Origin: a virus
Taxonomy: Duplodnaviria; Caudoviricetes
Strand: one strand, 5' to 3'
Virus record (IMG/VR): IMGVR_UViG_3300042558_004043
Length of the DNA: 64,000 nt
Part shown: positions 1,855 to 60,636 of the stretch, in pieces
Layout: each line of letters opens with the position of its first letter
How positions within the stretch are numbered: the first letter of the stretch is position 1
Notes under the pieces: generated by a model
Databases searched by the model: none
Told to the model about the DNA's origin: nothing
What the model saw: the letters and a program-made list of their open reading frames with translations, nothing else
Position numbers and translations under genes: made by a program

Positions 1855-2640
1855 ATGAAAAAATTATTATTTCTTTTTCTACTTGGGGTTTTAACAACAT
1901 TAACATCATTCTCCCAAGCAGATACTGTAAAAACTAAAGGACTATTCTTTAGACCGGCAAAAAAAGAGAGCCCGTTTACAAGTGACTTTGGACTTTCAAC
2001 CTCTAATTTGTGGAGAGGTGTTGACGTAGGAAAACAACCTGTAATAAAAATGACTGCGGATTATCAACCAGTAAGTTGGTTCACACTGAACTCTGAGGTT
2101 AACGCTGTTTACAACCAATTTAGAGAAGGATATGCAAACACTGTGAAAAATTCAGCTTTGTTTAATGTCTTTAACACATCAATTGGAGTTCAGGACATTT
2201 ATTTTAGTCAAAACACTCCAACTCAGATTGACACAAATTATTTCCATTATAATAAGGCTACTACCAATCACTTTTTGGAAGCGGTATTGAAATATAAAGG
2301 TGATGCAAAATCAAGAATTGATTTCTTAACAAGTTATGTGTTTTATCAAAATGAATCATATAAGAGAGGTTCAATTTATTTTGAAGCTACTTACCATTTG
2401 GATTACAATGCTGACATATTTGTTGGGTACGTAACCGGTGAATCACAAGTAAACTTCCAAAAAGAAAACGGATTTACTAATGTGGGTGTTGTATTAAAGA
2501 GAACTTTATCATTCTCTAAGGGAACTGACGCCAATTCTCGTTTGACAATTATGGTTAATCCAATGTATAAGACTGTTATTGTTACAAATCCAAGTTTGGC
2601 TAACAGACCTATTACTGCTAATTTAGAAATTACATTCTAA
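1855..2640 (+). CDS. putative outer-membrane beta-barrel protein
   Basis: Sec signal peptide MKKLLFLFLLG..., alternating beta-strand pattern, SNLWRG, C-terminal Phe (LEITF). Confidence 0.55.
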   Translation: MKKLLFLFLLGVLTTLTSFSQADTVKTKGLFFRPAKKESPFTSDFGLSTSNLWRGVDVGKQPVIKMTADYQPVSWFTLNSEVNAVYNQFREGYANTVKNSALFNVFNTSIGVQDIYFSQNTPTQIDTNYFHYNKATTNHFLEAVLKYKGDAKSRIDFLTSYVFYQNESYKRGSIYFEATYHLDYNADIFVGYVTGESQVNFQKENGFTNVGVVLKRTLSFSKGTDANSRLTIMVNPMYKTVIVTNPSLANRPITANLEITF

Positions 2641-3195: not shown

Positions 3196-3621
3196 TTAGT
3201 CGATACTAACCAACTCCAAATCAAAGATAAGTTTTTTACCTGCCAAAGGATGATTTGCATCAACCATAGCTGAGGTTTCATTCACTTCTTTAACAACTAC
3301 CATTACTGGACCACGTTCGGTCATACCCTGTAGTTGGTCACCAACTTTAACATTTTCAGGAAGATTCCCGAGAGGTACTTCACTTACCATACCCTCAACA
3401 ACATCACCATAAGCTTCTGATGGGTCAATTTCCACTGTCTTTTTATCTCCGACTGACATTCCCATCAATCCTGATTCAAAACCTTTAATCAATTGACCTT
3501 GTCCTAATACCGCAGCCAATGGTTCACGACCTTCAGTTAGTGAAGAATCGAATACAGAACCGTCCTCTAAACGTCCTGTGTAGTTAACTTTTACGGAGTC
3601 ACCGTTTTGTACTATTTTCAT
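3196..3621 (-). CDS. slyD: FKBP-type peptidyl-prolyl isomerase (SlyD/SlpA family, no His-rich tail)
   Basis: VKVNYTGRLEDGSVFDSS, DANHPLAGKKLIF; CAT at 3619-3621 and TTA at 3196-3198 show minus strand (track label + is wrong). Confidence 0.9.
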   Translation of the reverse strand: MKIVQNGDSVKVNYTGRLEDGSVFDSSLTEGREPLAAVLGQGQLIKGFESGLMGMSVGDKKTVEIDPSEAYGDVVEGMVSEVPLGNLPENVKVGDQLQGMTERGPVMVVVKEVNETSAMVDANHPLAGKKLIFDLELVSID

Positions 3622-4892: not shown

Positions 4893-5438
4893 ATGGTATC
4901 GATAAAACACAGTACAAAGATGGTTGGGGAAAGCTTTAAAGACATAAAATACGCTGTTAAGCGATTTATTCGAAAAATTAAGAACGTTTTTCGATGGCTT
5001 CCCACAATTTGGAAGGATGAGGACTATGATAGTCACTTCATTAACGAAATATTAATCAAAAAACTCGAACATACCCGAGATTTCTTCTTGTCTGATAGGA
5101 CTCACATAACTTCCGCTAAAGAAGTTGCTGAGGAAATCCAAGAAGCGATTGACCGTCTTCACATGACCCGTGATAGTTGGGAGTTTTATGAAGAACCGGC
5201 TCACGACATAATTGAAGAGAAGTGGGGTAAGACAACTTTTGAATTTATACCACTTGAAGACCGACCAAATGTTAGTGAAATGGTTTCAAAAACCGAGAAG
5301 GTTAAAACTCCTGAAGATAAAGAACAATATTCTGAGGATTTCAGAGCGGCAATGAAAGCCGCCCGTAAGGAATACATGAAAGATAAAAAAGAAGCATATA
5401 AATTTATCGCCAAACATATTGATGGTTGGTGGGACTAA
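4893..5438 (+). CDS. hypothetical phage protein (start uncertain)
   Basis: 181 aa ORF; IKNVFRWLPTIWKDEDYD segment. Confidence 0.6.
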   Translation: MVSIKHSTKMVGESFKDIKYAVKRFIRKIKNVFRWLPTIWKDEDYDSHFINEILIKKLEHTRDFFLSDRTHITSAKEVAEEIQEAIDRLHMTRDSWEFYEEPAHDIIEEKWGKTTFEFIPLEDRPNVSEMVSKTEKVKTPEDKEQYSEDFRAAMKAARKEYMKDKKEAYKFIAKHIDGWWD

Positions 5439-5450
5439 AAAATTAAAATT

Positions 5451-5972
5451 ATGGAATGGTACATTGTAAGAGCACAAGCAAATCGTGAGAGAAAAGTCTC
5501 AGAAAGAATTTTAAAAGAAGCCGACAAAGGGGAACTCAATGGGGTAATCGGAAGAGTTGTAGTTCCAATGGAAAAAGTATTTGCCACGAAAGATGGTAAA
5601 AAAACACAACGTGAAAAAGTTTTGTTTCCTGGTTATGTTTTTGTTGAAACATCCGCAATTGGGGAATTAAAACAAGTTGTTAAAAAAATTGATGGAGCAA
5701 CGGGATTGTTGTCTGACAGAGCTGGAAATATCCAAATTGTATCAGACCAAGAAGTAAACCGAATGATTGGAATTCACGAAGAAAACAAAACAAAAAGTTT
5801 TTCAGACATATTCAGTGTTGGAGATGAAGTTACTGTAACTGAAGGTCCATTTACATCCTTTAAGGGAAACATTGAATTTATTGATAAAGAGAAAGGTAAA
5901 CTTAAAGTAAATGTTCTTATCTTTGGCAGACCAACATCTGTTGAATTGGAGGAAACCCAAGTAAAAAAATGA
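5451..5972 (+). CDS. nusG: transcription termination/antitermination factor NusG
   Basis: NGN domain (WYIVRAQANRERKV, KVLFPGYVFVE) plus KOW (GDEVTVTEGPFTSFKG, VNVLIFGRPTSVEL). Confidence 0.95.
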   Translation: MEWYIVRAQANRERKVSERILKEADKGELNGVIGRVVVPMEKVFATKDGKKTQREKVLFPGYVFVETSAIGELKQVVKKIDGATGLLSDRAGNIQIVSDQEVNRMIGIHEENKTKSFSDIFSVGDEVTVTEGPFTSFKGNIEFIDKEKGKLKVNVLIFGRPTSVELEETQVKK

Positions 5973-6658
5973 AAATAACTTTTATATCAGATACTCACAA
6001 CAAACACAAGCAAATTACTGAAGATTTGCCAGGAGGTGACTTACTGATTCACGCTGGTGATATCTCATCAATGGGTTATAAGTATGAAATCCAAAAATTC
6101 TGCAAGTGGTTTGACAGTTTGGAAAATTATACTGTAAAGACATTCATTGCCGGTAATCACGACTTTGGGTTTGAAAAGGAACCCGAAATGGCCAAAGAGG
6201 TTGTCGGTTTTTATAATGACATTGTTTATCTTCAAGATAGTTTTCTTGGTTACGGAGTTGATACGGAAAATTATGTAAAGATTTATGGTAGTCCATGGCA
6301 GCCCGAGTTCTATAATTGGGCGTTTAATCTACCAAAGAATGGTCATAAACTTACACAGAAGTGGAATGACATTCCTGATGATACTGACATATTAATTACT
6401 CACGGACCGGCATTTGGTTATTTGGATACAATTATGGGTCAGTATGATAATCTTGGATGTGAATTACTGACAAAAAGAATTAAAACAATTAAACCTAAAA
6501 TTCATGTCTGCGGGCACATACATTCAGGGTATGGTTATGTTTTTGACGGAGATACTCACTTCATCAATGCCTCGGTATTAGACGAACAGTATCAATACAC
6601 CCAAAAACCACTAACGGTAGAATGGGACCCTGTAACGAATAAATTGGAGTTTATTTAA
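5969..6658 (+). CDS. metallophosphoesterase (calcineurin-like)
   Basis: SDTH, HAGD, GNHD, THGP, GHIH motifs. Confidence 0.9.
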   Translation: MKITFISDTHNKHKQITEDLPGGDLLIHAGDISSMGYKYEIQKFCKWFDSLENYTVKTFIAGNHDFGFEKEPEMAKEVVGFYNDIVYLQDSFLGYGVDTENYVKIYGSPWQPEFYNWAFNLPKNGHKLTQKWNDIPDDTDILITHGPAFGYLDTIMGQYDNLGCELLTKRIKTIKPKIHVCGHIHSGYGYVFDGDTHFINASVLDEQYQYTQKPLTVEWDPVTNKLEFI

Positions 6659-6662
6659 TTTG

Positions 6663-6692
6663 AAACCCGTCTAACCGACGGGTTTTTTATTT
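6663..6692 (+). terminator. intrinsic terminator
   Basis: AAACCCGTC-loop-GACGGGTTT then T-run. Confidence 0.7.
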
Positions 6693-6757
6693 TAAAAAAA
6701 CCTTAATTATAGTAATATTTTTTTTAACTTAAAGAGTATATTGATATTTATTGATGA

Positions 6758-8011
6758 ATGTCGTTAAAATTAAAATTAAACTTAATTTCATTAATAGTAG
6801 TTGTTTTCTTAATCCTGAAAACTACAGTATTACTTGATATCACTCCTTCATCACCAGTTACGAGGGGGTCGGAATATATTCTATTTTTGACAATAACATA
6901 TTTTTTATATTCCTTTATCAGACAATATATTAAGAATGAAAGGGAAAATAAAAAACTTACTGAAAAAATCACACAAAAAGAAAGAGCGTTAGCAAATAGA
7001 ATGGATGCGATTAATCGTTCAAGTCCTGTGATTGAATTTGATACTAATGGTATAGTTTGTTTTGCCAATGATTCATTTTTGGATGCAATGGGGTATAAAT
7101 CAGAAGAGGTTATAGGAAAACATCATAGTATTTTTGTTTTTGATGATGAAAAAAATTCAAATGGGTATATTAATTTTTGGAACAAACTTAAATCAGGTGT
7201 TTATTTTAGTGGGGACATTATCAGAAAGAAAAAGGACGGTAACAAGATTTATTTAAGTGCCACCTACAATCCAATTATAAATGAAACAGGAGAAACCTAT
7301 CGAGTATTAAAAATTGCAAGAGACATATCTGAAATTGTTGAAAAGTCAAAAGAAATTGAAAAACAAAACACTTATCTCGAGCACGCGGCTAAAATATTGA
7401 GACACGACATGCACTCTGGAATTAATACTTATATCCCGAGAGGTATAAGTTCTTTGGAAAGAAGATTAAAACCTGAGGACATAGAAACTTTAAAGATTGA
7501 GGCTCCCCTTAAAATGATTAAGGAGGGATTAAGACACTCACAAAAAGTTTATAAAGGTGTTTATGAATTTACCAATTTGGTTAAAAAAGATGTGGTATTA
7601 AATAAAGCTGAATGTGATTTAAGAGCGATACTAAATGATTATTTATCATCAACTGCTTATCATAGTCAGGTAATTATTGAGGAACTACCAACCATAGAAG
7701 TTAATGAAGCTCTATTCTGTACGGCAATAGACAACTTAATTAGGAATGGATTGAAGTATAATGATTCTGAAACAAAATTTGTAAAAATATATATGGAAGG
7801 TGATGAGTTAATGGTTCAGGATAATGGACGAGGTATTGACCAAAAAGATTTTGACCATTTATCAAAACCATACACAAGAAAAGAAGGGCAAAAAGAGTCA
7901 GGAACTGGACTCGGATTAAACATATGTGTTGCGATATTACAAGAACACAAGTTTTTGGTAAGATGTGAGAAAAATGAGATAGGAACTAAACTGAAAATAA
8001 AAATAAAATAA
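6758..8011 (+). CDS. PAS-domain sensor histidine kinase
   Basis: 2 N-terminal TM segments, PAS/PAC (IEFDTNG..ANDSFL..MGY; ATYNPI), H-box ILRHDMH, N-box DNLIRNGLKY, G1 DNGRGI, G2 GTGLGL. Confidence 0.9.
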   Translation: MSLKLKLNLISLIVVVFLILKTTVLLDITPSSPVTRGSEYILFLTITYFLYSFIRQYIKNERENKKLTEKITQKERALANRMDAINRSSPVIEFDTNGIVCFANDSFLDAMGYKSEEVIGKHHSIFVFDDEKNSNGYINFWNKLKSGVYFSGDIIRKKKDGNKIYLSATYNPIINETGETYRVLKIARDISEIVEKSKEIEKQNTYLEHAAKILRHDMHSGINTYIPRGISSLERRLKPEDIETLKIEAPLKMIKEGLRHSQKVYKGVYEFTNLVKKDVVLNKAECDLRAILNDYLSSTAYHSQVIIEELPTIEVNEALFCTAIDNLIRNGLKYNDSETKFVKIYMEGDELMVQDNGRGIDQKDFDHLSKPYTRKEGQKESGTGLGLNICVAILQEHKFLVRCEKNEIGTKLKIKIK

Positions 8012-8019
8012 AAAAAACT

Positions 8020-8451
8020 ATGATTGATTCAATTTTACTTGTAGATGACGAGGATTTATTCCATTTAGTATTTGAAGATAGCTGTTCGCTTCTTGATATA
8101 ACATTATCTTTAAAAAGTTTGAATAGTTCAGATGAGGCCGCCAAATTATTTGAAAAATGGCAATCAAATAGCTCTGATAAGCCTGAATGTGTGTTTGTTG
8201 ATTTGAATATCATTGGGTCTTCCTTTGATGGTATTGAGTTAATTAGAAAGATTAACTTTGAATACGGTAATAATGTTGTAATCGGAATTATTTCATCTTC
8301 AAACGAACCCGAAGAACAGGCAAAGGCAATTCAGTCAGGTGCTCAATTTTGGATTATAAAATCAGATGAGATTGAACCAAGATTGGAGGAGTTTAAGAAA
8401 GATTATGAAGGTTACAAAAACAGAACCGCTCCGTTTAAAATTTACAAATGA
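8020..8451 (+). CDS. single-domain response regulator (CheY-like receiver)
   Basis: LLVDDE acidic pocket, VFVDLN phosphoacceptor, ISSS, WIIKS Lys. Confidence 0.9.
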   Translation: MIDSILLVDDEDLFHLVFEDSCSLLDITLSLKSLNSSDEAAKLFEKWQSNSSDKPECVFVDLNIIGSSFDGIELIRKINFEYGNNVVIGIISSSNEPEEQAKAIQSGAQFWIIKSDEIEPRLEEFKKDYEGYKNRTAPFKIYK

Positions 8452-9131
8452 TAAAATTCACCCCTGAAATAAAACAAGAATTAATTATCTTATCAGAAAC
8501 CAAAAACTTATTTTTGGAAGGAAATATAGTTAAGGTAATTAATTCTGATGGGGATGAATATTTTAAAGAATACCTTAAAAAGTGTGGTGAAAGAGATGTT
8601 GCAAATAGAAAGAAGAGACTTGACATTACCAAACAAATTCAAACCCAAAACAAAGAACTATCCGACTTAAACGCCCAAAATCAAAAGATATTAGACGAAC
8701 TTCAAACAACATTAAATGAAGTTGAAGAATCTAAATTAACATTTGAAGTCCAAAACAGAGAATTAAACGAGTGGAAATTGGATAATTTGAGGTTGACGGA
8801 AGAATTAACGGTGGAGATGGTTAAATCCGAACAAGCAAGGGTTGATGCTGAAAAGGCAAAACAACATGCCGAAAATGATTTGGATGTGTTACAAAAGAAA
8901 ACTCAATTTGAGTTAATAAATACAATTGTAAGAGTTGCTTTAATTGTAATTATTGGAGTTGGAATAGTTACTACGGCATTATATTCTGTGGCATTGTTCA
9001 CAGGTCAAGATACCCAAATAATTGGCTCAACTTGGAGTAATATGTTTGGTATATTATTAACAAATGCATTCAGTATTGTCGGAACTATAATGGGTGTTAA
9101 GTATGCGTCAGAAAAACCAAAGAAGAATTAA
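8448..9131 (+). CDS. coiled-coil protein with two C-terminal TM helices
   Basis: long heptad region then VALIVIIGVGIVTTALYSVALF and MFGILLTNAFSIVGTIMGV; coupled to the regulator. Confidence 0.7.
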   Translation: MIKFTPEIKQELIILSETKNLFLEGNIVKVINSDGDEYFKEYLKKCGERDVANRKKRLDITKQIQTQNKELSDLNAQNQKILDELQTTLNEVEESKLTFEVQNRELNEWKLDNLRLTEELTVEMVKSEQARVDAEKAKQHAENDLDVLQKKTQFELINTIVRVALIVIIGVGIVTTALYSVALFTGQDTQIIGSTWSNMFGILLTNAFSIVGTIMGVKYASEKPKKN

Positions 9132-9478
9132 TCATTTGTGATATAATCCTTAAAAATTCTTTTCTCAACTAAATTTCCTTCCATATCATACATCCAACCT
9201 TCATATTTTTTACCCTTAAAATATTTGACTTGAGATACTCTAATTCCAACTGGTGAATATGTAGTCCAGATTCCATCTTTTCTACCTTTATCATAATAAC
9301 CTACAGAAAATATGCTTCCATTTTCATAATAAGCAATCCACTCACCAGTTTTTAGATTATTTGATAAATGACCACGTTGTTCGATTTGACCTTTGTCATT
9401 TTTAAACACAACTTCTTCTACTTGTGAATGTCCTACAACCTGTAAGAACATAAACACCAAAAATATAATCTGCTTCAT
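9128..9478 (-). CDS. secreted MORN-variant repeat protein (YwqK-like)
   Basis: signal peptide; GEWIAYYENG, GIWTTYSPVG, GWMYDMEG repeats. Confidence 0.7.
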   Translation of the reverse strand: MKQIIFLVFMFLQVVGHSQVEEVVFKNDKGQIEQRGHLSNNLKTGEWIAYYENGSIFSVGYYDKGRKDGIWTTYSPVGIRVSQVKYFKGKKYEGWMYDMEGNLVEKRIFKDYITND

Positions 9479-9569
9479 AGTATTAAGGATATATTATAAA
9501 TACATTAAGGAAATGTTAAGTAATATTATCAATTTTGACAATTGAAAAATTTAACATACATATTGCAAT

Positions 9570-9809
9570 ATGAAGACAATTCTTATTACAGTATTTTTTA
9601 GAATCATTTTTTTAGATTCACAAACAGATGAAACTTTGACAGGTGTTAAAGTTGAAACTAATCAGGGTGTGTATTTTTCTAACTTAGATGGTGAAGTTTT
9701 TATACCAACTGAAGATAAAGTTTTATCGGTAAGTTATGTTTCCTATGAAACAAAAAATGGTGTCACCCTTTCGAATGACACCATTATGTCTTTGAGTCAA
9801 ATTCAGTAA
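9570..9809 (+). CDS. small protein resembling a carboxypeptidase-regulatory-like domain
   Basis: DSQTDETLTGVKV...SNLDGEV.I...SYVSYET pattern. Confidence 0.45.
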   Translation: MKTILITVFFRIIFLDSQTDETLTGVKVETNQGVYFSNLDGEVFIPTEDKVLSVSYVSYETKNGVTLSNDTIMSLSQIQ

Positions 9810-9812
9810 TTT

Positions 9813-9980
9813 TTATTTTTTGAAAGAATTTTTATATTCTTCGGTTCCGTATTTTTTCCAGTTCCAATTACCGTAAAAGTCGGGATTTTCAACAGAACAT
9901 TCACCAGAAGATTTGTAGTCGGATAAAAATTTATCTGACATTTCTTTGGTATATCTATTTTTAACCTTAAAATTTTTCAT
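9813..9980 (-). CDS. small hypothetical protein (55 aa, not in track)
   Basis: MKNFKVKNRYTKE...; starts immediately after stop of 9981..10838. Confidence 0.5.
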   Translation of the reverse strand: MKNFKVKNRYTKEMSDKFLSDYKSSGECSVENPDFYGNWNWKKYGTEEYKNSFKK

Positions 9981-10838
9981 TCAAAATTTGTTTACATCAC
10001 CATAATTCATGTGTAATTCATCGTGAGAGTCTTTCATCATTTGATATGCTCTGGCAAGACGAGTTAAACCAATACCTCCACCAAATCTTTTAAAGAATTT
10101 GTGAGATAAAAACTCTTCAAGTTCTTTTTCAACTCTTTCTTTACCAAACAATTCAAACAATTTGGCAGAATAACCACCGTTTTCTATAGTATAGAACATT
10201 TGTCTCATTTCATCAACATCACAACTTCTTTCAGCAGAACCAATTGTTTCTTGACCGTAAAGAATAACGTCTACTTTATTGAATTTGTCACCTTCACCTG
10301 ACTTCATGTTCCAAAATGGGTTAGTTCTAACAGGGAAATTTTGTAATGACACCACATCACCTTTTTCTTTCCACATTTTAGTTTCGTGTTCGTTTTCCAA
10401 AATCGGAACTCCGCCATATTCTTCACAAACATCGTCATAATTCACTTCAACAGGAGAATCAAAACCTAAAAACGCAAGTAATTCAGATTCTAATTTAAGT
10501 AATTCTTTCATACCACCCTTTGACTCGAATTCAAACATTGGGAAGATTAATTCGTGACGACCTGGGATTGGGTCTTTTTCTTGTCTGTATGATGTTGAGA
10601 TACAGAACACACCTGGCCATTCGGAATTTTGTAACAATTCATACTCTAACCACATTTGACCTGTTTGTGGTAATGGCCAAATTTGACCTTGATACTCAAA
10701 CGTTGTGATTGAGTGTGGATTCTCACATGCTGCGAGAATTGATAATCTTGATTGGGTCGGAACCTCAAGAAAACCTTTGTTTAGGAAAAAGGTCCTCATC
10801 TTTTGGACCAACTCGTGATAAATTTTTGTGTTTTTCAT
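9981..10838 (-). CDS. class II aminoacyl-tRNA synthetase-like catalytic core (Asp/Asn/Lys type) lacking an anticodon-binding domain
   Basis: motif1 FFLNKGFLEVPT, LPQTGQMWLE, motif2 SYRQE...RHELIFPMFEFE, ETIGSAER, motif3 GGGIGLTRL; only 285 aa. Confidence 0.8.
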   Translation of the reverse strand: MKNTKIYHELVQKMRTFFLNKGFLEVPTQSRLSILAACENPHSITTFEYQGQIWPLPQTGQMWLEYELLQNSEWPGVFCISTSYRQEKDPIPGRHELIFPMFEFESKGGMKELLKLESELLAFLGFDSPVEVNYDDVCEEYGGVPILENEHETKMWKEKGDVVSLQNFPVRTNPFWNMKSGEGDKFNKVDVILYGQETIGSAERSCDVDEMRQMFYTIENGGYSAKLFELFGKERVEKELEEFLSHKFFKRFGGGIGLTRLARAYQMMKDSHDELHMNYGDVNKF

Positions 10839-12166: not shown

Positions 12167-14044
12167 ATGGGTAAAATTATAGGTATTGATTTAGGAACAA
12201 CAAATTCATGTGTTGCCGTTATGGAAAATGGCGAACCTGTTGTGATTACAAACAGTGAAGGAAAAAGAACCACCCCTTCGATTGTTGGTTTTGCAAATGG
12301 TGGTGATAGAAAGATTGGTGACCCGGCAAAACGTCAAGCGGTTACAAATCCTGATAAAACAGTTTACTCCATTAAGCGTTTTATGGGAGCAAGTTTCGAT
12401 GAAAGTAAAAAAGAAATCAAGCGTGTTCCTTATAAAGTGGTTAAAGGTGAGGGTAACACTCCTCGTGTTCAAATTGAGGACAAGAAGTTTTCAGCTCAGG
12501 AAATTTCGGCGATGGTTCTTCAGAAAATGAAGCAAACTGCCGAAGACTATTTGGGTGAAACAGTAACTGATGCGGTTATTACAGTACCAGCATATTTCAA
12601 TGATGCTCAACGTCAGGCAACAAAAGAAGCCGGTGAAATTGCAGGTCTAACTGTTAAACGTATTATTAACGAACCAACCGCGGCGGCACTTGCCTATGGT
12701 CTTGACAAAAAAGGTCAGGATATGAAAGTTGTTGTGTTTGACTGTGGTGGTGGTACTCACGACGTATCGGTTCTTGAACTTGGTGATGGGGTATTTGAAG
12801 TTTTGTCAACTGACGGTGATACACACCTAGGTGGTGATGACTTTGACCAAGCAATTATCGACTGGCTCGTTCAAGAGTTCAAAGATGAAAATGGTTTGGA
12901 TTTGAATCAAGACCCAATGGCACTTCAGCGTCTTCGTGAAGGAGCTGAAAAAGCAAAGATTGAACTTTCATCTTCACCATCAACGGAAATCAATCTTCCT
13001 TACATTATGCCGGTAGATGGTATGCCAAAACACTTGGTTCGTACAATGACAAAGGCAAAGTTCGAGCAGTTGGTTGACAGTTTGGTACAACGTACAATTG
13101 CACCATGTAAATCGGCCTTGAAAAACGCAGGTTTGAAACCAAAAGACATCGATGAAGTTATCTTGGTTGGAGGTTCAACTAGAATTCCTGCAATCCAAGA
13201 GGCAGTTAAAAAGTTCTTCGGTAAAGAACCATCAAAAGGAGTTAACCCTGATGAAGTTGTAGCACTTGGTGCTGCAATTCAAGGAGGAGTACTCGCAGGT
13301 GACGTTAAAGACGTATTGTTGTTGGATGTAACACCACTTTCACTCGGTATTGAAACGATGGGTGGAGTATTCACAAAACTTATTGAGTCAAACACAACAA
13401 TTCCGACAAAAAAGTCACAAGTTTTCTCAACCGCAGTTGACAATCAACCATCAGTAGAAATTCACGTTCTACAGGGAGAAAGAGCAATGGCTCAAGACAA
13501 TAGAACAATTGGTCGTTTCTTCCTTGATGGTCTTCCAACGGCAATGAGAGGAGTTCCACAAATCGAAGTAACTTTTGACATCGATGCTAACGGTATTATC
13601 AATGTTTCAGCAAAAGACAAAGCCACTGACAAAGAGCAATCAATCCGTATTGAAAGTTCGACAGGACTTTCTAAAGAGGAAATTGAACAAATGAAACGTG
13701 ATGCTGAGTTAAATGCCGAAGCGGACGCTAAAGCTCGTGAAAATGCTGACATAATAAATCAAGGAGATTCTATGGCGTTCCAAGCTGAAAAAACTCTAAA
13801 GGATTTAGAAGAAAAAATGACCGATGAACAAAAAACTCAATTAACCGATGCTTTGGCTGAATTAAAAACAGCCCTACAAGAGAAGGAAGTTGAAAAGGTT
13901 AGAGACGCAACTGCAAAAGTTGCAATCACATCTCAAACAATTACCCAAGGAATTTATAGTCAGTCTGGTTCTGAAGGTGAAGGCGGTCAAACTATGGATG
14001 AAGAAGTTTCAGACGTAGATTTTGAAGAAGTACAACCTAAGTAA
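12167..14044 (+). CDS. dnaK: Hsp70 chaperone DnaK
   Basis: [54 protein letters not shown]; full length 625 aa. Confidence 0.98.
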
Positions 14045-14450: not shown

Positions 14451-14738
14451 TTAATTAGGTTCTTCTTCATCCTTTTTCTTTCTACCTCTTCTGTCTGTGA
14501 ACTTGTCAAAACTTGCAAGACCTAGACAACCAAACGCCAATAATGCAACCGCGTCAACTAAGTATTCTGCAGGTGCAACATCAACATTGGAAAAGCTATT
14601 GTGATACATGGTTAAACATAGTGCTATGGCACAACCCATACCCACAATTCTTTTTGATGAGGGATTACCTTTCTCGTCGTTAAAAATACCTTTTAACCAA
14701 AGAAGGGCTTCTCCAAAAAGAGCAACAATTTTTTTCAT
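14451..14738 (-). CDS. two-TM holin-like membrane protein
   Basis: PSSKRIVG then two TM helices and a charged C-tail. Confidence 0.5.
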   Translation of the reverse strand: MKKIVALFGEALLWLKGIFNDEKGNPSSKRIVGMGCAIALCLTMYHNSFSNVDVAPAEYLVDAVALLAFGCLGLASFDKFTDRRGRKKKDEEEPN

Positions 14739-44986: not shown

Positions 44987-46663
44987 ATGAGTAGTTTAAA
45001 AGATATTCTTTCGAGTTTTCATCTACAAGATGAACTGAACCCAAAAATTTGGTCCAAAGACGGACAAAAAATGAATCCAAAGGTCCGTGAGAGACTATTG
45101 GAGATAACCAATGATTTTATAGAATTTTTGGGTGTTGACGTTATTGTTACTGATGTAATAATGACAGGTTCACTTGCCAACTACAATTGGTCAAAATTTT
45201 CAGACATTGATTTACATATTGTTGCGAATTTTTCTCAGTTTTCAGAAGAACAATTACCACTATACGAAGAGTTATTCAAACTCAAAAAAACTTTATATAA
45301 CGACAAACACAATATAAAGATTTTTGGTTATGACGTTGAATTATACGTCCAAAACGAAACCGAAATTCATTTTAGTAGTGGTGTTTATTCTGTGTTATTT
45401 GATGAATGGAGTAACAAACCTGAAAAAGAAACTGTCAAAATTGATAAGGAATTAATCAAAACCAAGTCTCAACAATGGATGGACATTATTGATAGTGTTA
45501 TAGAAAATGCTTCAGATGAACCAATTGAAAGTGCTAAGAAAATAATTAAAAAATACAAAGATAAGTTAAAAAAATATCGTACTTGTGGTCTTGAAAAAGA
45601 TGGAGAATATTCAGATGAAAATTTGGTATTTAAAGTTCTTAGAAGAAACGGGTATATTGAAAAACTTTTTAATTTTGAAGACAAGCACATTGATAAACAA
45701 TTATCACTCAAGGAGCAGGCTGAAAGTGATGAATACTCAAATATTGTCGATAGTTTAACCGAATTATCAAATAAAAATCTGACATTAATCAATGAACCAA
45801 AACCTAAAGGTCAAAAAATCTTTAATCCAAATACTGAAATTTTACAAACAGCTTTGACACTTATGGGTTATCCTTTACCTAAATTTGGTGTTGATGGTAA
45901 ATTTGGAAAAGAAACACAAACCGCAGTTGAGTCCTTCGAATCTGAAAATGGGTTAACTGTCGATGGTAAAGTTGATTCTAAAGACTTCAAAAAAATGTCA
46001 GAAGTTATTTTTAAAAGAAGACCTGTTAAAACTTTAGAACCAATAAAATCAAAAGAAACTGAATTAATCGTTAAAAAAGAACCGAAAATTATATCACCAT
46101 CAGGTTCAGTTGATTTTAGACAAATCACAAGAAGTGTCATTAATAATTTGGAAGGAGGTTATTACAATCCAAAATGGCACAATACAAAAGGAATGGGTAG
46201 GTCAGGTGAGACTATGTTTGGAATTGATAGAAGACATGGAGGTAACTATAATACAAGTCCTGCAGGTATTAAGTTTTGGGGTATTATAGACAAAAATAAA
46301 AGTCAACAGGTTTGGAAATATAACTACAGAGGAGGACAACTTGAAGGAGAACTCACAGATTTAGTTGTTGATATTATTCAACCTTTTTATAACGAATTTA
46401 AAAATAGATACTTGTCTCCAACGGCAAAGAAATTAGTTGATAGTGATTCAAGATTGACCTTCCATTTTGCTTATGCGGTTTGGAACGGACCAGGATGGTT
46501 TAGAAAATTTGCTAAAGTTATTAATAAAGCGGTTGAAAATGGGGAACTTAATACTGATGTATTGTCCAAAAAGGCAATAAGAAGTAGAGTTGATAGTGGT
46601 AATAGTTTGATTGCTAAGAGCGGAAGAAAGATAGATGACGTTCTTGGAATTAATGCTGCGTAA
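44987..46663 (+). CDS. nucleotidyltransferase + peptidoglycan-binding + GH108-like lysozyme fusion
   Basis: TGSLANY..SKFSDIDLH (GS, DxD); LQTAL..MGY..VDGKFGKET; LEGGYYN...GETMFGI. Confidence 0.75.
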   Translation: MSSLKDILSSFHLQDELNPKIWSKDGQKMNPKVRERLLEITNDFIEFLGVDVIVTDVIMTGSLANYNWSKFSDIDLHIVANFSQFSEEQLPLYEELFKLKKTLYNDKHNIKIFGYDVELYVQNETEIHFSSGVYSVLFDEWSNKPEKETVKIDKELIKTKSQQWMDIIDSVIENASDEPIESAKKIIKKYKDKLKKYRTCGLEKDGEYSDENLVFKVLRRNGYIEKLFNFEDKHIDKQLSLKEQAESDEYSNIVDSLTELSNKNLTLINEPKPKGQKIFNPNTEILQTALTLMGYPLPKFGVDGKFGKETQTAVESFESENGLTVDGKVDSKDFKKMSEVIFKRRPVKTLEPIKSKETELIVKKEPKIISPSGSVDFRQITRSVINNLEGGYYNPKWHNTKGMGRSGETMFGIDRRHGGNYNTSPAGIKFWGIIDKNKSQQVWKYNYRGGQLEGELTDLVVDIIQPFYNEFKNRYLSPTAKKLVDSDSRLTFHFAYAVWNGPGWFRKFAKVINKAVENGELNTDVLSKKAIRSRVDSGNSLIAKSGRKIDDVLGINAA

Positions 46664-50757: not shown

Positions 50758-50809
50758 TAAAAACCCCCACTTAGTTGGGGGTTTAATATTTATATACAAA
50801 TATAGTCTT

Positions 50810-52570: not shown

Positions 52571-52606
52571 TATTTATATTATTGATAAAGTGATTAAATT
52601 ATCTTA

Positions 52607-54448: not shown

Positions 54449-54469
54449 TATTTATAATAAAAAAAGAAA

Positions 54470-55946: not shown

Positions 55947-55967
55947 TATTTATAAAGAAAATTAAAG

Positions 55968-56914: not shown

Positions 56915-57042
56915 TCTATATATCAATGATTAAATTAAAGGAGGTTTTATACCTCCTTTTTTATTTTATTTTGGTTTGATTTGTCAATATAAATAAATTT
57001 TTTAAAACTCGATAATATTTATATAAAAAATTAAAACCAAAA

Positions 57043-60502: not shown

Positions 60503-60636
60503 ATTGATTAGAATTGTTTCACTCTAATCTTATTTTAATATGTAGACGAAACCTCATTATGATTCGACATAAATTAGTTTGATAGGACAGGCATCAAACT
60601 TAAACAACGATATTTATATGTAAATGTTTTTTACAT

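Follow-up and report, generated by a model that had tools for sequence, protein, structure and literature searches.

Within a stretch of viral DNA of 64,000 nucleotides (nt), the whole of which we call the window, three open reading frames (ORFs) on the same strand fill positions 6758-9131, as read from a list of the ORFs with their translations. The first encodes a sensor histidine kinase of 417 amino acids (aa) (HK; 6758-8011, + strand), the second a stand-alone CheY-like receiver of 143 aa (RR; 8020-8451, +), and the third a membrane protein of 227 aa with a coiled coil and two transmembrane (TM) segments that belongs to no known family (ORF3; 8448-9131, +). HK and RR are separated by a gap of 8 nt, and the RR and ORF3 genes overlap at an ATGA. 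The window corresponds to the minus strand of an IMG/VR virus record of 81.7 kb (IMGVR_UViG_3300042558_004043). CheckV estimates the record to be 28% complete, implying a genome of ~300 kb, and among the genes in the window are those for terminase, portal, gp23-type major head protein and prohead protease. The record represents one part of the genome of a T4-like jumbo phage of ~300 kb, uncultured and from freshwater. Judged by the capsid, the cultured phages closest to it are T4-like Flavobacterium phages (41% identity), and a host among the Bacteroidota is plausible.

The kinase comprises an N-terminal membrane anchor, one PAS domain, a DHp region and a catalytic HATPase_c domain. There is a strong hydrophobic segment at aa 10-28 and a second, weaker one, and the periplasmic loop is almost nil. 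The PAS sensor domain (aa 89-192; 7022-7333, +) scores above the cutoff for PAS_9, PAS_3, PAS and PAS_4, the Pfam match to PAS_9 covering aa 95-192 with 52 bits. In the DHp region (7352-7552, +) the predicted phospho-acceptor is His216 (codon 7403-7405), lying in an H-box that reads LRH216DMHSGINTY, and LRHDMHSGINTY is invariant in 90 relatives. The HATPase_c domain (aa 320-416; 7715-8005, +) scores 49.7 bits against a cutoff of 26.4, and its N-box (D325-Y334), G1 box (D354xG356xG358), F-box (F365-R374) and G2 box (G382-L387) can all be read in the sequence. Across 90 distinct relatives the H, N, G1 and G2 boxes show little or no variation, and residues 194-404 align with the DHp and CA region of the solved histidine kinase 4jas (E 1.8e-8).

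The receiver contains Response_reg alone (aa 5-115; 35.2 bits against a Pfam cutoff of 30.2), with no output domain. Its phospho-acceptor is D61 (codon 8200-8202), and W111 occupies the aromatic-switch position. A set of 32 diverse sequences shows no change at D9, D10, D61, S92-94 or K114, and over 84-90 distinct sequences the H, N, G1 and G2 boxes of the kinase and the catalytic residues of RR are invariant or nearly so, which indicates that selection keeps them intact. The sequence features of a classical two-component system are present at this locus: a phospho-acceptor histidine in a DHp region, the HATPase_c boxes, the D-D-D-S/T-K set of the receiver, and genes that share an operon.

ORF3 can be divided into three parts. 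The N-terminal module (N-module; aa 1-60, 8448-8627, +) contains an LEGNI motif and an RKKRLEITKQ helix, has invariant residues E24, G25, Y42, D50, R54, R57 and L58 in the alignment, and is the proposed docking site for the receiver. A coiled-coil stalk (aa 37-158; 8556-8921, +) varies in length among the relatives, with indels of 7 to ~33 residues in the alignment. The proposed output is a membrane hairpin (8922-9131, +) in which TM1 (approximately aa 159-182) is connected by a loop of 14 aa to TM2 (aa 197-219). TM2, GILLTNAFSIVGTIMGVKY, is invariant in the alignment and has a polar face and a GxxxG motif. An AlphaFold2 model (pLDDT 86.6) has a small N-terminal helical module, then a single helix that covers aa 37-185 and continues into TM1, and finally TM2; the two TM helices correspond to two hydrophobic segments in the protein. 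The flanks of the hairpin are positively charged at both the N- and C-terminal sides and the 14-aa loop has no positive charge, a distribution that suggests an N-in/C-in topology. We found no family for ORF3 in Pfam (DUF7795 appears only below threshold) or PHROGs, and in the ESM Atlas it falls solely into an unnamed viral family of its own. When 1.84 billion representatives were searched with a profile, 264 clusters were recovered, none of them tied to a known family. The first-pass annotation of this DNA, made from the letters alone, had described a membrane PAS kinase with every catalytic box, a lone receiver with intact Asp, Ser and Lys, a translationally coupled coiled-coil membrane protein and no DNA-binding output domain, and each part of that description is borne out by the analysis above.

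The cassette is widespread among viruses. In scans of IMG/VR we found relatives of HK on at least 572 viral contigs, of RR on at least 481 and of ORF3 on at least 316, the contigs reaching 322 kb; the cassette thus recurs far beyond chance. A large protein collection holds more than 7,660 clusters of ORF3 and 3,853 of RR, all of them metagenomic. The first-pass annotation had made its reading depend on synteny of the three genes in relatives, and we find the order HK-RR-ORF3 in all of 99 non-redundant loci, with flanks that vary. RR and ORF3 overlap in 61 of these, in none does the distance between them exceed 23 nt, and HK and RR lie within 60 nt of each other in 94. Four large gaps between HK and RR are insertions of homing endonucleases, and nothing else ever separates the two genes. 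Genes for GIY-YIG/NUMOD3 homing endonucleases lie between HK and RR in four relatives (L012 3773-4240; L197 5273-5995; L087; L114).

Outside the viral metagenomes the cassette is almost absent. A megablast search with positions 6000-10000 gave no match among 50,697 deposited phage genomes, nor did tblastn with ORF3 and RR against deposited phage genomes, and tblastn with HK found only pieces at the level of the PAS domain or the ATPase. In 185,579 species genomes ORF3 is found on only eight contigs from metagenome-assembled genomes (MAGs), which are assigned to mutually inconsistent phyla; this fits phage DNA that has been mis-binned. Atlas clusters are 96-100% viral. We conclude that the cassette is a real, intact, virus-specific and conserved kinase/receiver pair with a membrane effector.

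Phages do carry two-component genes of another kind. The genes phoR, phoB, nifL and narL have been found on phage contigs as single, host-like genes that cluster with bacterial references and are thought to join host regulons (PMC10987575). On that precedent the cassette might be a host-derived moron, passively carried and without a role in infection. We regard this as very improbable, because ORF3 and RR are essentially confined to viruses and form thousands of metagenomic clusters, and because the catalytic residues and synteny are invariant. Unlike those genes, the cassette is a complete and self-contained operon of kinase, receiver and effector that is specific to viruses and has an output of its own.

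The sensor part of the kinase is modular. The nearest solved relatives of the HK PAS domain are flavin-binding PAS domains, namely NifL PAS1 (9qq6/2gj3, E~1e-10), MmoS (3ewk), Aer (8dik, 1e-6) and LOV, a kinship seen by sequence. In the HMMER alignment with NifL PAS1 the Trp of ALW is retained (NFW), while VNRRK corresponds to IRKKK in HK, and some positions differ from NifL. The kinship gives some backing to redox-type sensing by the HK PAS domain, and the earlier comparison with the redox and oxygen sensors Aer and BdlA is in part supported. In relatives the domain is exchanged for GAF or an additional PAS. Among the related kinases we find PAS only, TM-PAS, PAS-PAS, GAF-PAS and GAF-PAS-PAS arrangements. 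Around a quarter of the kinases of the clade are soluble, and HK itself has almost no periplasmic loop; the cue is therefore intracellular or intramembrane. Of the host or environmental cue originally suggested, it is the environmental part that does not survive. In some relatives there are tandem kinases (L012 304-3517; L197 1744-5272; L004 5944-9187; L243), with an uncharacterized gene of 205-218 aa between them; the second kinase is ~440 aa long and lacks a recognizable sensor domain.

What the relay acts upon is suggested by natural fusions of its parts. A single protein with the arrangement PAS-PAS-coiled coil-hairpin was first seen in divergent MAG loci; its coiled coil is short, and its hairpin (…DTQIIGSTWSNMF.VLLTNAFSIVGTIMGIKYA) is unmistakably that of ORF3. 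In contig L249 it is encoded at 5341-6456. Relatives of this PAS-PAS-hairpin form occur on at least 180 viral contigs of up to 160 kb, and in 80 such loci neither a kinase core nor a receiver was found. Profile searches additionally revealed PAS-coiled coil-hairpin (P0292) and GAF-coiled coil-hairpin (P0256) proteins. These one-component PAS and GAF fusions lack the kinase, the receiver and the N-module of ORF3. The reciprocal fusion also exists. In five clusters found by profile search the N-module and coiled coil of ORF3 are joined to HisKA-HATPase_c, and in three contigs (L334 3088-6463, L335 2236-5611, L331 164-1608) the gene for such an N-module-coiled coil-HisKA-HATPase_c protein occupies the position of ORF3, overlapping the stop of a 143-aa receiver (67% identical to the RR of the window) that follows a PAS-PAS kinase. 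The operon in these three contigs could be a phage phosphorelay of two tiers; what comes after it lies beyond the ends of these short contigs. A further candidate in which the N-terminal part of ORF3 is joined to a FecCD permease (P0314) appeared to be an assembly chimera and was not used.

Since the fusions that lack a receiver also lack the N-module, and the N-module-kinase gene follows a receiver, the N-module goes with the receiver. Since sensors are fused directly onto the hairpin, the hairpin stands below the sensor in the pathway, no matter which sensor a phage uses. This argues strongly that the receiver addresses the N-module of ORF3, with the hairpin as effector. The fusions indicate that ORF3 is the output of the relay, which is what the first-pass annotation had proposed in suggesting the third protein as effector.

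An alternative is that ORF3 sits on the input side, where it would tune the kinase as a scaffold or co-sensor in the membrane, in the manner of LiaF or SaeP/Q, and that the target of RR is a host protein, for instance a motor, a protease adaptor or a factor associated with the polymerase. Kinase modulators are often the third genes of cellular two-component operons, and the soluble quarter of the kinases might need a membrane tether. Moreover, across the fetched clade RR is far more conserved (85-100% identity) than HK (58-97%) or ORF3 (49-94%), as would be expected if it had to fit a conserved target in the host. Nevertheless, the one-component fusions place a sensor on the hairpin where there is no kinase to modulate, in the N-module-kinase variant the N-module would serve as the input to a catalytic module after a receiver gene, and the tightest coupling is between RR and ORF3, not HK and ORF3. 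An input-side role for ORF3 is therefore improbable.

A direct contact between the receiver and ORF3 was also examined by prediction of the complex. RR with ORF3(1-160) gave a median ipSAE of 0.37 (0.01, 0.41 and 0.37 in the three runs), compared with 0.00 for the best control, with runs that agree in at least 93% of contacts and a partner pLDDT of at least 84. The mark used for such predictions is reached by 58 of 80 solved complexes and by 2 of 110 mismatched pairs, and at values of 0.60 or below by 7 of the 80 and by both of the mismatches. The predicted complex thus weakly supports a contact between RR and ORF3.

The genes that surround the cassette in relatives suggest what the output may be for. 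A GH19 lysin, often with PG_binding_1, is present inside the fetched flanks of ~6 kb in 61 of 93 loci, where roughly 5% would be expected by chance for a lysin in a span of ~14 kb in a 300-kb genome. Five arrangements are seen among the 61. The lysin is adjacent and downstream of ORF3 in 25, downstream on the same strand within 1.4 kb in 11, divergent at a median of 70 nt from HK in 15, upstream on the same strand in 8 and downstream on the opposite strand in 2. On a tree of RR and ORF3 these arrangements are scattered over nearly all the deep subclades; the lysin linkage has therefore outlived repeated rearrangement. At 15 distinct junctions the stop of ORF3 is followed by the lysin ATG at a distance of 11-23 nt, no TATTTAT sequence lies between, and the result is a four-gene operon. 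The fused forms have similar company. The PAS-fused form has a 93-aa TM protein as neighbor in 51 of 69 loci and a PG_binding_1 endolysin in 34 of 69, the PAS-PAS-hairpin gene of L249 is located between a GH19 endolysin and a Phage_holin_4_1 holin, and the GAF-fused form has GH19 and glucosaminidase genes no more than 2 kb away.

Taken together, these observations are consistent with a phage phosphorelay that addresses a membrane effector through protein contact and most likely modulates lysis of the host. We give this reading a probability of about one half. The lysis timing that had been offered as one possible role is best backed by the gene neighborhoods of relatives, although no lysin is adjacent in the phage of the window itself. 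The other role that had been offered, control of gliding, has no support, as no neighbor or domain in any of the neighborhoods points to it.

A number of observations weigh against this reading. There is no lysin adjoining the cassette in the window, and none in the whole record of 81.7 kb; a search of the record with the GH19 proteins of relatives gave only a match to the peptidoglycan-binding domain of a 558-aa ORF (44987-46663). The close relative G001 has a GH19-like gene on the other strand, 4.3 kb upstream of HK, and in the window this slot holds an unrelated secreted protein of 261 aa (1855-2640). In G002, which of the complete relatives is the closest, GH19 is absent, and the only amidase detected there is ~87 kb from the cassette. 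Phage_lysozyme was not detected in any of G000-G002. The link to lysis in this subclade therefore rests on homology with other subclades. Proximity to lysins could also mirror a shared block of late, envelope-directed genes instead of direct control. ORF3 has no link to holins in Pfam, PHROGs or the Atlas. Class II holins are ~65-95 aa in length, and ORF3 is far larger, having 227 aa with a cytoplasmic extension of ~160 aa. No match to Pfam HisKA above the reporting threshold was obtained for HK, and its DHp must therefore be divergent. One of the three runs for the complex of RR and ORF3 scored only 0.01. Finally, G006 (the IMG/VR record behind L374; 296 kb, CheckV 100%), whose capsid protein is 78% identical, has neither RR nor ORF3. 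Two others of the genomes that were found through their major capsid protein possess both genes, so the pair is present or absent together. The module must therefore be dispensable, an accessory within the lineage.

Several of these points would be accommodated if the relay were real and ORF3 its output, but the hairpin served superinfection exclusion, membrane potential or transport, or remodelling of the envelope during the long cycle of a jumbo phage; the proximity of lysins would then reflect a common envelope-directed block. Besides the lack of an adjacent lysin in the window phage and G002, the lack of similarity of ORF3 to holin or antiholin families and the dispensability of the module, this would agree with the nature of the genes next to ORF3. 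Immediately 3′ is a convergent MORN-repeat gene (9128-9478, −; MORN_2) whose stop overlaps that of ORF3, followed by a CarboxypepD_reg-like gene (9570-9809, +), and both encode small secreted proteins. We nonetheless think such a role unlikely, if not to be dismissed, since the linkage to lysins has been kept through at least five rearrangements, in most subclades and with three independent architectures, the lysin is operonic with ORF3 at the 15 distinct junctions, and in L249 the fused form is found amid two endolysins and a canonical holin.

It might alternatively be supposed that these phages use ORF3 as their holin; it would then be a class-II-like hairpin that carries a cytoplasmic extension for regulation, with RR as the trigger or the brake. 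The two-TM hairpin with its suggested N-in/C-in topology would be of the appropriate form, a lysin directly follows ORF3 in many phages (25 of the 93 loci), and no Phage_holin_4_1 was detected in the five clade genomes G000-G004. Against this, the complete relative G006 manages without ORF3, L249 has a canonical holin in addition to the fused hairpin, and separate small two-TM proteins with charged C-termini are encoded near the cassette and lysins in both clades. One of these is in the window, encoded 5.3 kb downstream of the cassette (14451-14738, −), a holin-like candidate of 95 aa that has two TM helices and a charged tail. It is homologous to small TM proteins alongside the cassette and lysins of relatives, its gene is syntenic in G001 and G002, and it may belong to the system. 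These small TM neighbors (95 aa here; 93 and 174 aa in relatives) match no Pfam or PHROG family, and holin is therefore only a candidate label for them. We accord little likelihood to ORF3 being the holin. Because G006 lacks the module and separate small holin-like genes are present, a modulator is likelier than a sole holin.

Upstream, the cassette is bounded by a strong intrinsic terminator (6662-6686, +; a 10-bp stem with five GC pairs, and a T-run), which ends the preceding metallophosphoesterase gene. Between this and HK is a promoter-like element, the TATTTAT motif that had been noted at 6745; it occupies 6745-6751 (+), 7 nt ahead of the start codon of HK. The same sequence occurs in the sense orientation within 45 nt upstream, at distances of 11-40 nt, of 26 of the 76 genes in the window, compared with 6 for its reverse complement. 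Genes for terminase, portal and the head module are among those that bear it, and the extended consensus is A-TATTTAT-wnAnAAA, which is unlike the T4 late motif TATAAATA. Examples across the window are at 50787-50793, 52571-52577, 54449-54455, 55947-55953, 57016-57022 and 60611-60617. Its total of 50 occurrences in the window is a modest excess over the 36 ± 6.4 of shuffled sequences. In 48 of 78 distinct relatives TATTTAT precedes HK, in 38 of these at 11-13 nt from the ATG, and in the same comparison it never precedes RR or ORF3. A scan for sigma-70-type promoters found no enrichment, with 28 found and 28.4 expected from shuffles. TATTTAT is probably the promoter of the phage lineage itself, common to its late genes, and the genes that carry it, those of the cassette included, may be timed late, being compatible with late expression. 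Short contigs from four river and freshwater metatranscriptome libraries match parts of HK, RR and ORF3, one of them without any difference. Such contigs report presence only (start, end, strand and level cannot be read from them, and parts that are not covered carry no meaning), and in the four libraries none bridges a gene junction of the cassette by at least 31 nt. The matches establish presence in RNA libraries and a freshwater habitat, short of proven transcription.

We can now propose how the phosphorelay might modulate lysis. The cytoplasmic PAS domain of HK would sense an intracellular or membrane-proximal cue, and HK would autophosphorylate on H216 and transfer the phosphate to D61 of RR. 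Phosphorylated RR would then dock on the N-module of ORF3, made in step with it through translational coupling. The signal would run along the coiled coil of ~120 residues to the invariant two-helix hairpin, which might aid or restrain permeabilization of the membrane and so set the time at which endolysin gains access to the cell wall. The direction of the effect could be either holin-like or antiholin-like. More broadly, and tentatively, we suggest that this may be a programmable lysis clock in widespread uncultured freshwater phages, in which a cytoplasmic PAS or GAF sensor would control a virus-only hairpin, and so gate lysis or hold it back, either directly or via a phage kinase and a CheY-like receiver docking on the novel N-module, so that the internal state of the host is read and the time of burst is set by post-translational phosphotransfer.

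Parts of this scheme have counterparts in known systems. In Staphylococcus and Bacillus the LytSR pair with CidAB and LrgAB (PMC5717393) is likewise a kinase/receiver pair that acts on small membrane proteins of the holin/antiholin type and connects the physiology of the cell to permeabilization. That system is cellular, however, LytR has a LytTR DNA-binding domain and acts on transcription, and LytS is a multi-TM sensor. The phage cassette has in contrast a receiver without an output domain, a PAS or GAF sensor and an unrelated virus-only membrane family, and its action appears to be by protein contact. In the lysis inhibition of phage T4, the holin T is controlled by the antiholins RI and RIII, and the timing of lysis is adjusted via proteins that bind the non-membrane domain of the holin. 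The parallel would be a T4-type phage that adjusts its lysis timing to a signal. T4, though, senses superinfection in the periplasm, where RI acts on the large periplasmic domain of the holin, and neither kinase nor phosphorylation is involved; in the cassette the large regulatory domain would be cytoplasmic, with a phosphorelay or a fused PAS or GAF domain as input. We found no sequence similarity between the cassette and the T4 lysis-inhibition proteins. CheY, which acts on FliM, is a stand-alone receiver with the same D-D-D-S/T-K set. In both proteins the third residue ahead of the Lys is aromatic (Y106 in CheY, W111 in RR), and CheY acts by binding a target protein and not DNA, as we propose for RR. 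It differs in that the proposed target here is the N-module of a membrane coiled-coil protein, the context is neither chemotactic nor flagellar, and the kinase is a HisKA-like PAS kinase and not CheA.

A survey of jumbo phages mentions only a divergent receiver, which was never linked to kinases (PMC7824862). In targeted searches of the literature we found no description of a phage two-component system tied to lysis, nor of the HK-RR-ORF3 operon. The cassette is two-component signaling with a new type of output in a new biological setting.

Other genes in the window give an impression of the phage that carries it. It encodes a NusG-like factor (5451-5972), an AsnA-like protein with the class II synthetase fold (9981-10838), a full DnaK (12167-14044), an FKBP/SlyD-like isomerase (3196-3621), a large AAA+ protease or chaperone (42618-44666) and five tRNAs. 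From the NusG, AsnA-like, DnaK, FKBP and AAA+ genes, the phage appears to invest heavily in proteostasis and transcription independent of the host. The 261-aa protein at 1855-2640 (+) has a signal peptide and a C-terminal Phe and resembles an outer-membrane β-barrel, with no Pfam or PHROG family. The 558-aa protein at 44987-46663 (+) combines a weakly nucleotidyltransferase-like N-terminus, PG_binding_1 (aa 281-332) and an uncharacterized C-terminus, an odd architecture for a wall-binding protein, and is kept in G002.

When to lyse the host is the chief life-history decision that a lytic phage makes. To our knowledge the adjustments of lysis timing that are known, such as lambda S105/S107 and T4 lysis inhibition, involve no phosphorelay. 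If our interpretation is correct, a self-contained, virus-specific operon of kinase, receiver and effector would be a new regulatory principle for phages, and a docking module, coiled coil and membrane hairpin would together make up a new output class for response regulators. The natural one- and two-component versions provide a ready-made set of constructs for experiments, and the system might serve synthetic biology as a compact, signal-gated lysis switch. It could explain how large freshwater phages match the time of burst to the energy or redox state of the host, which bears on the mortality of bacteria in lakes and rivers.

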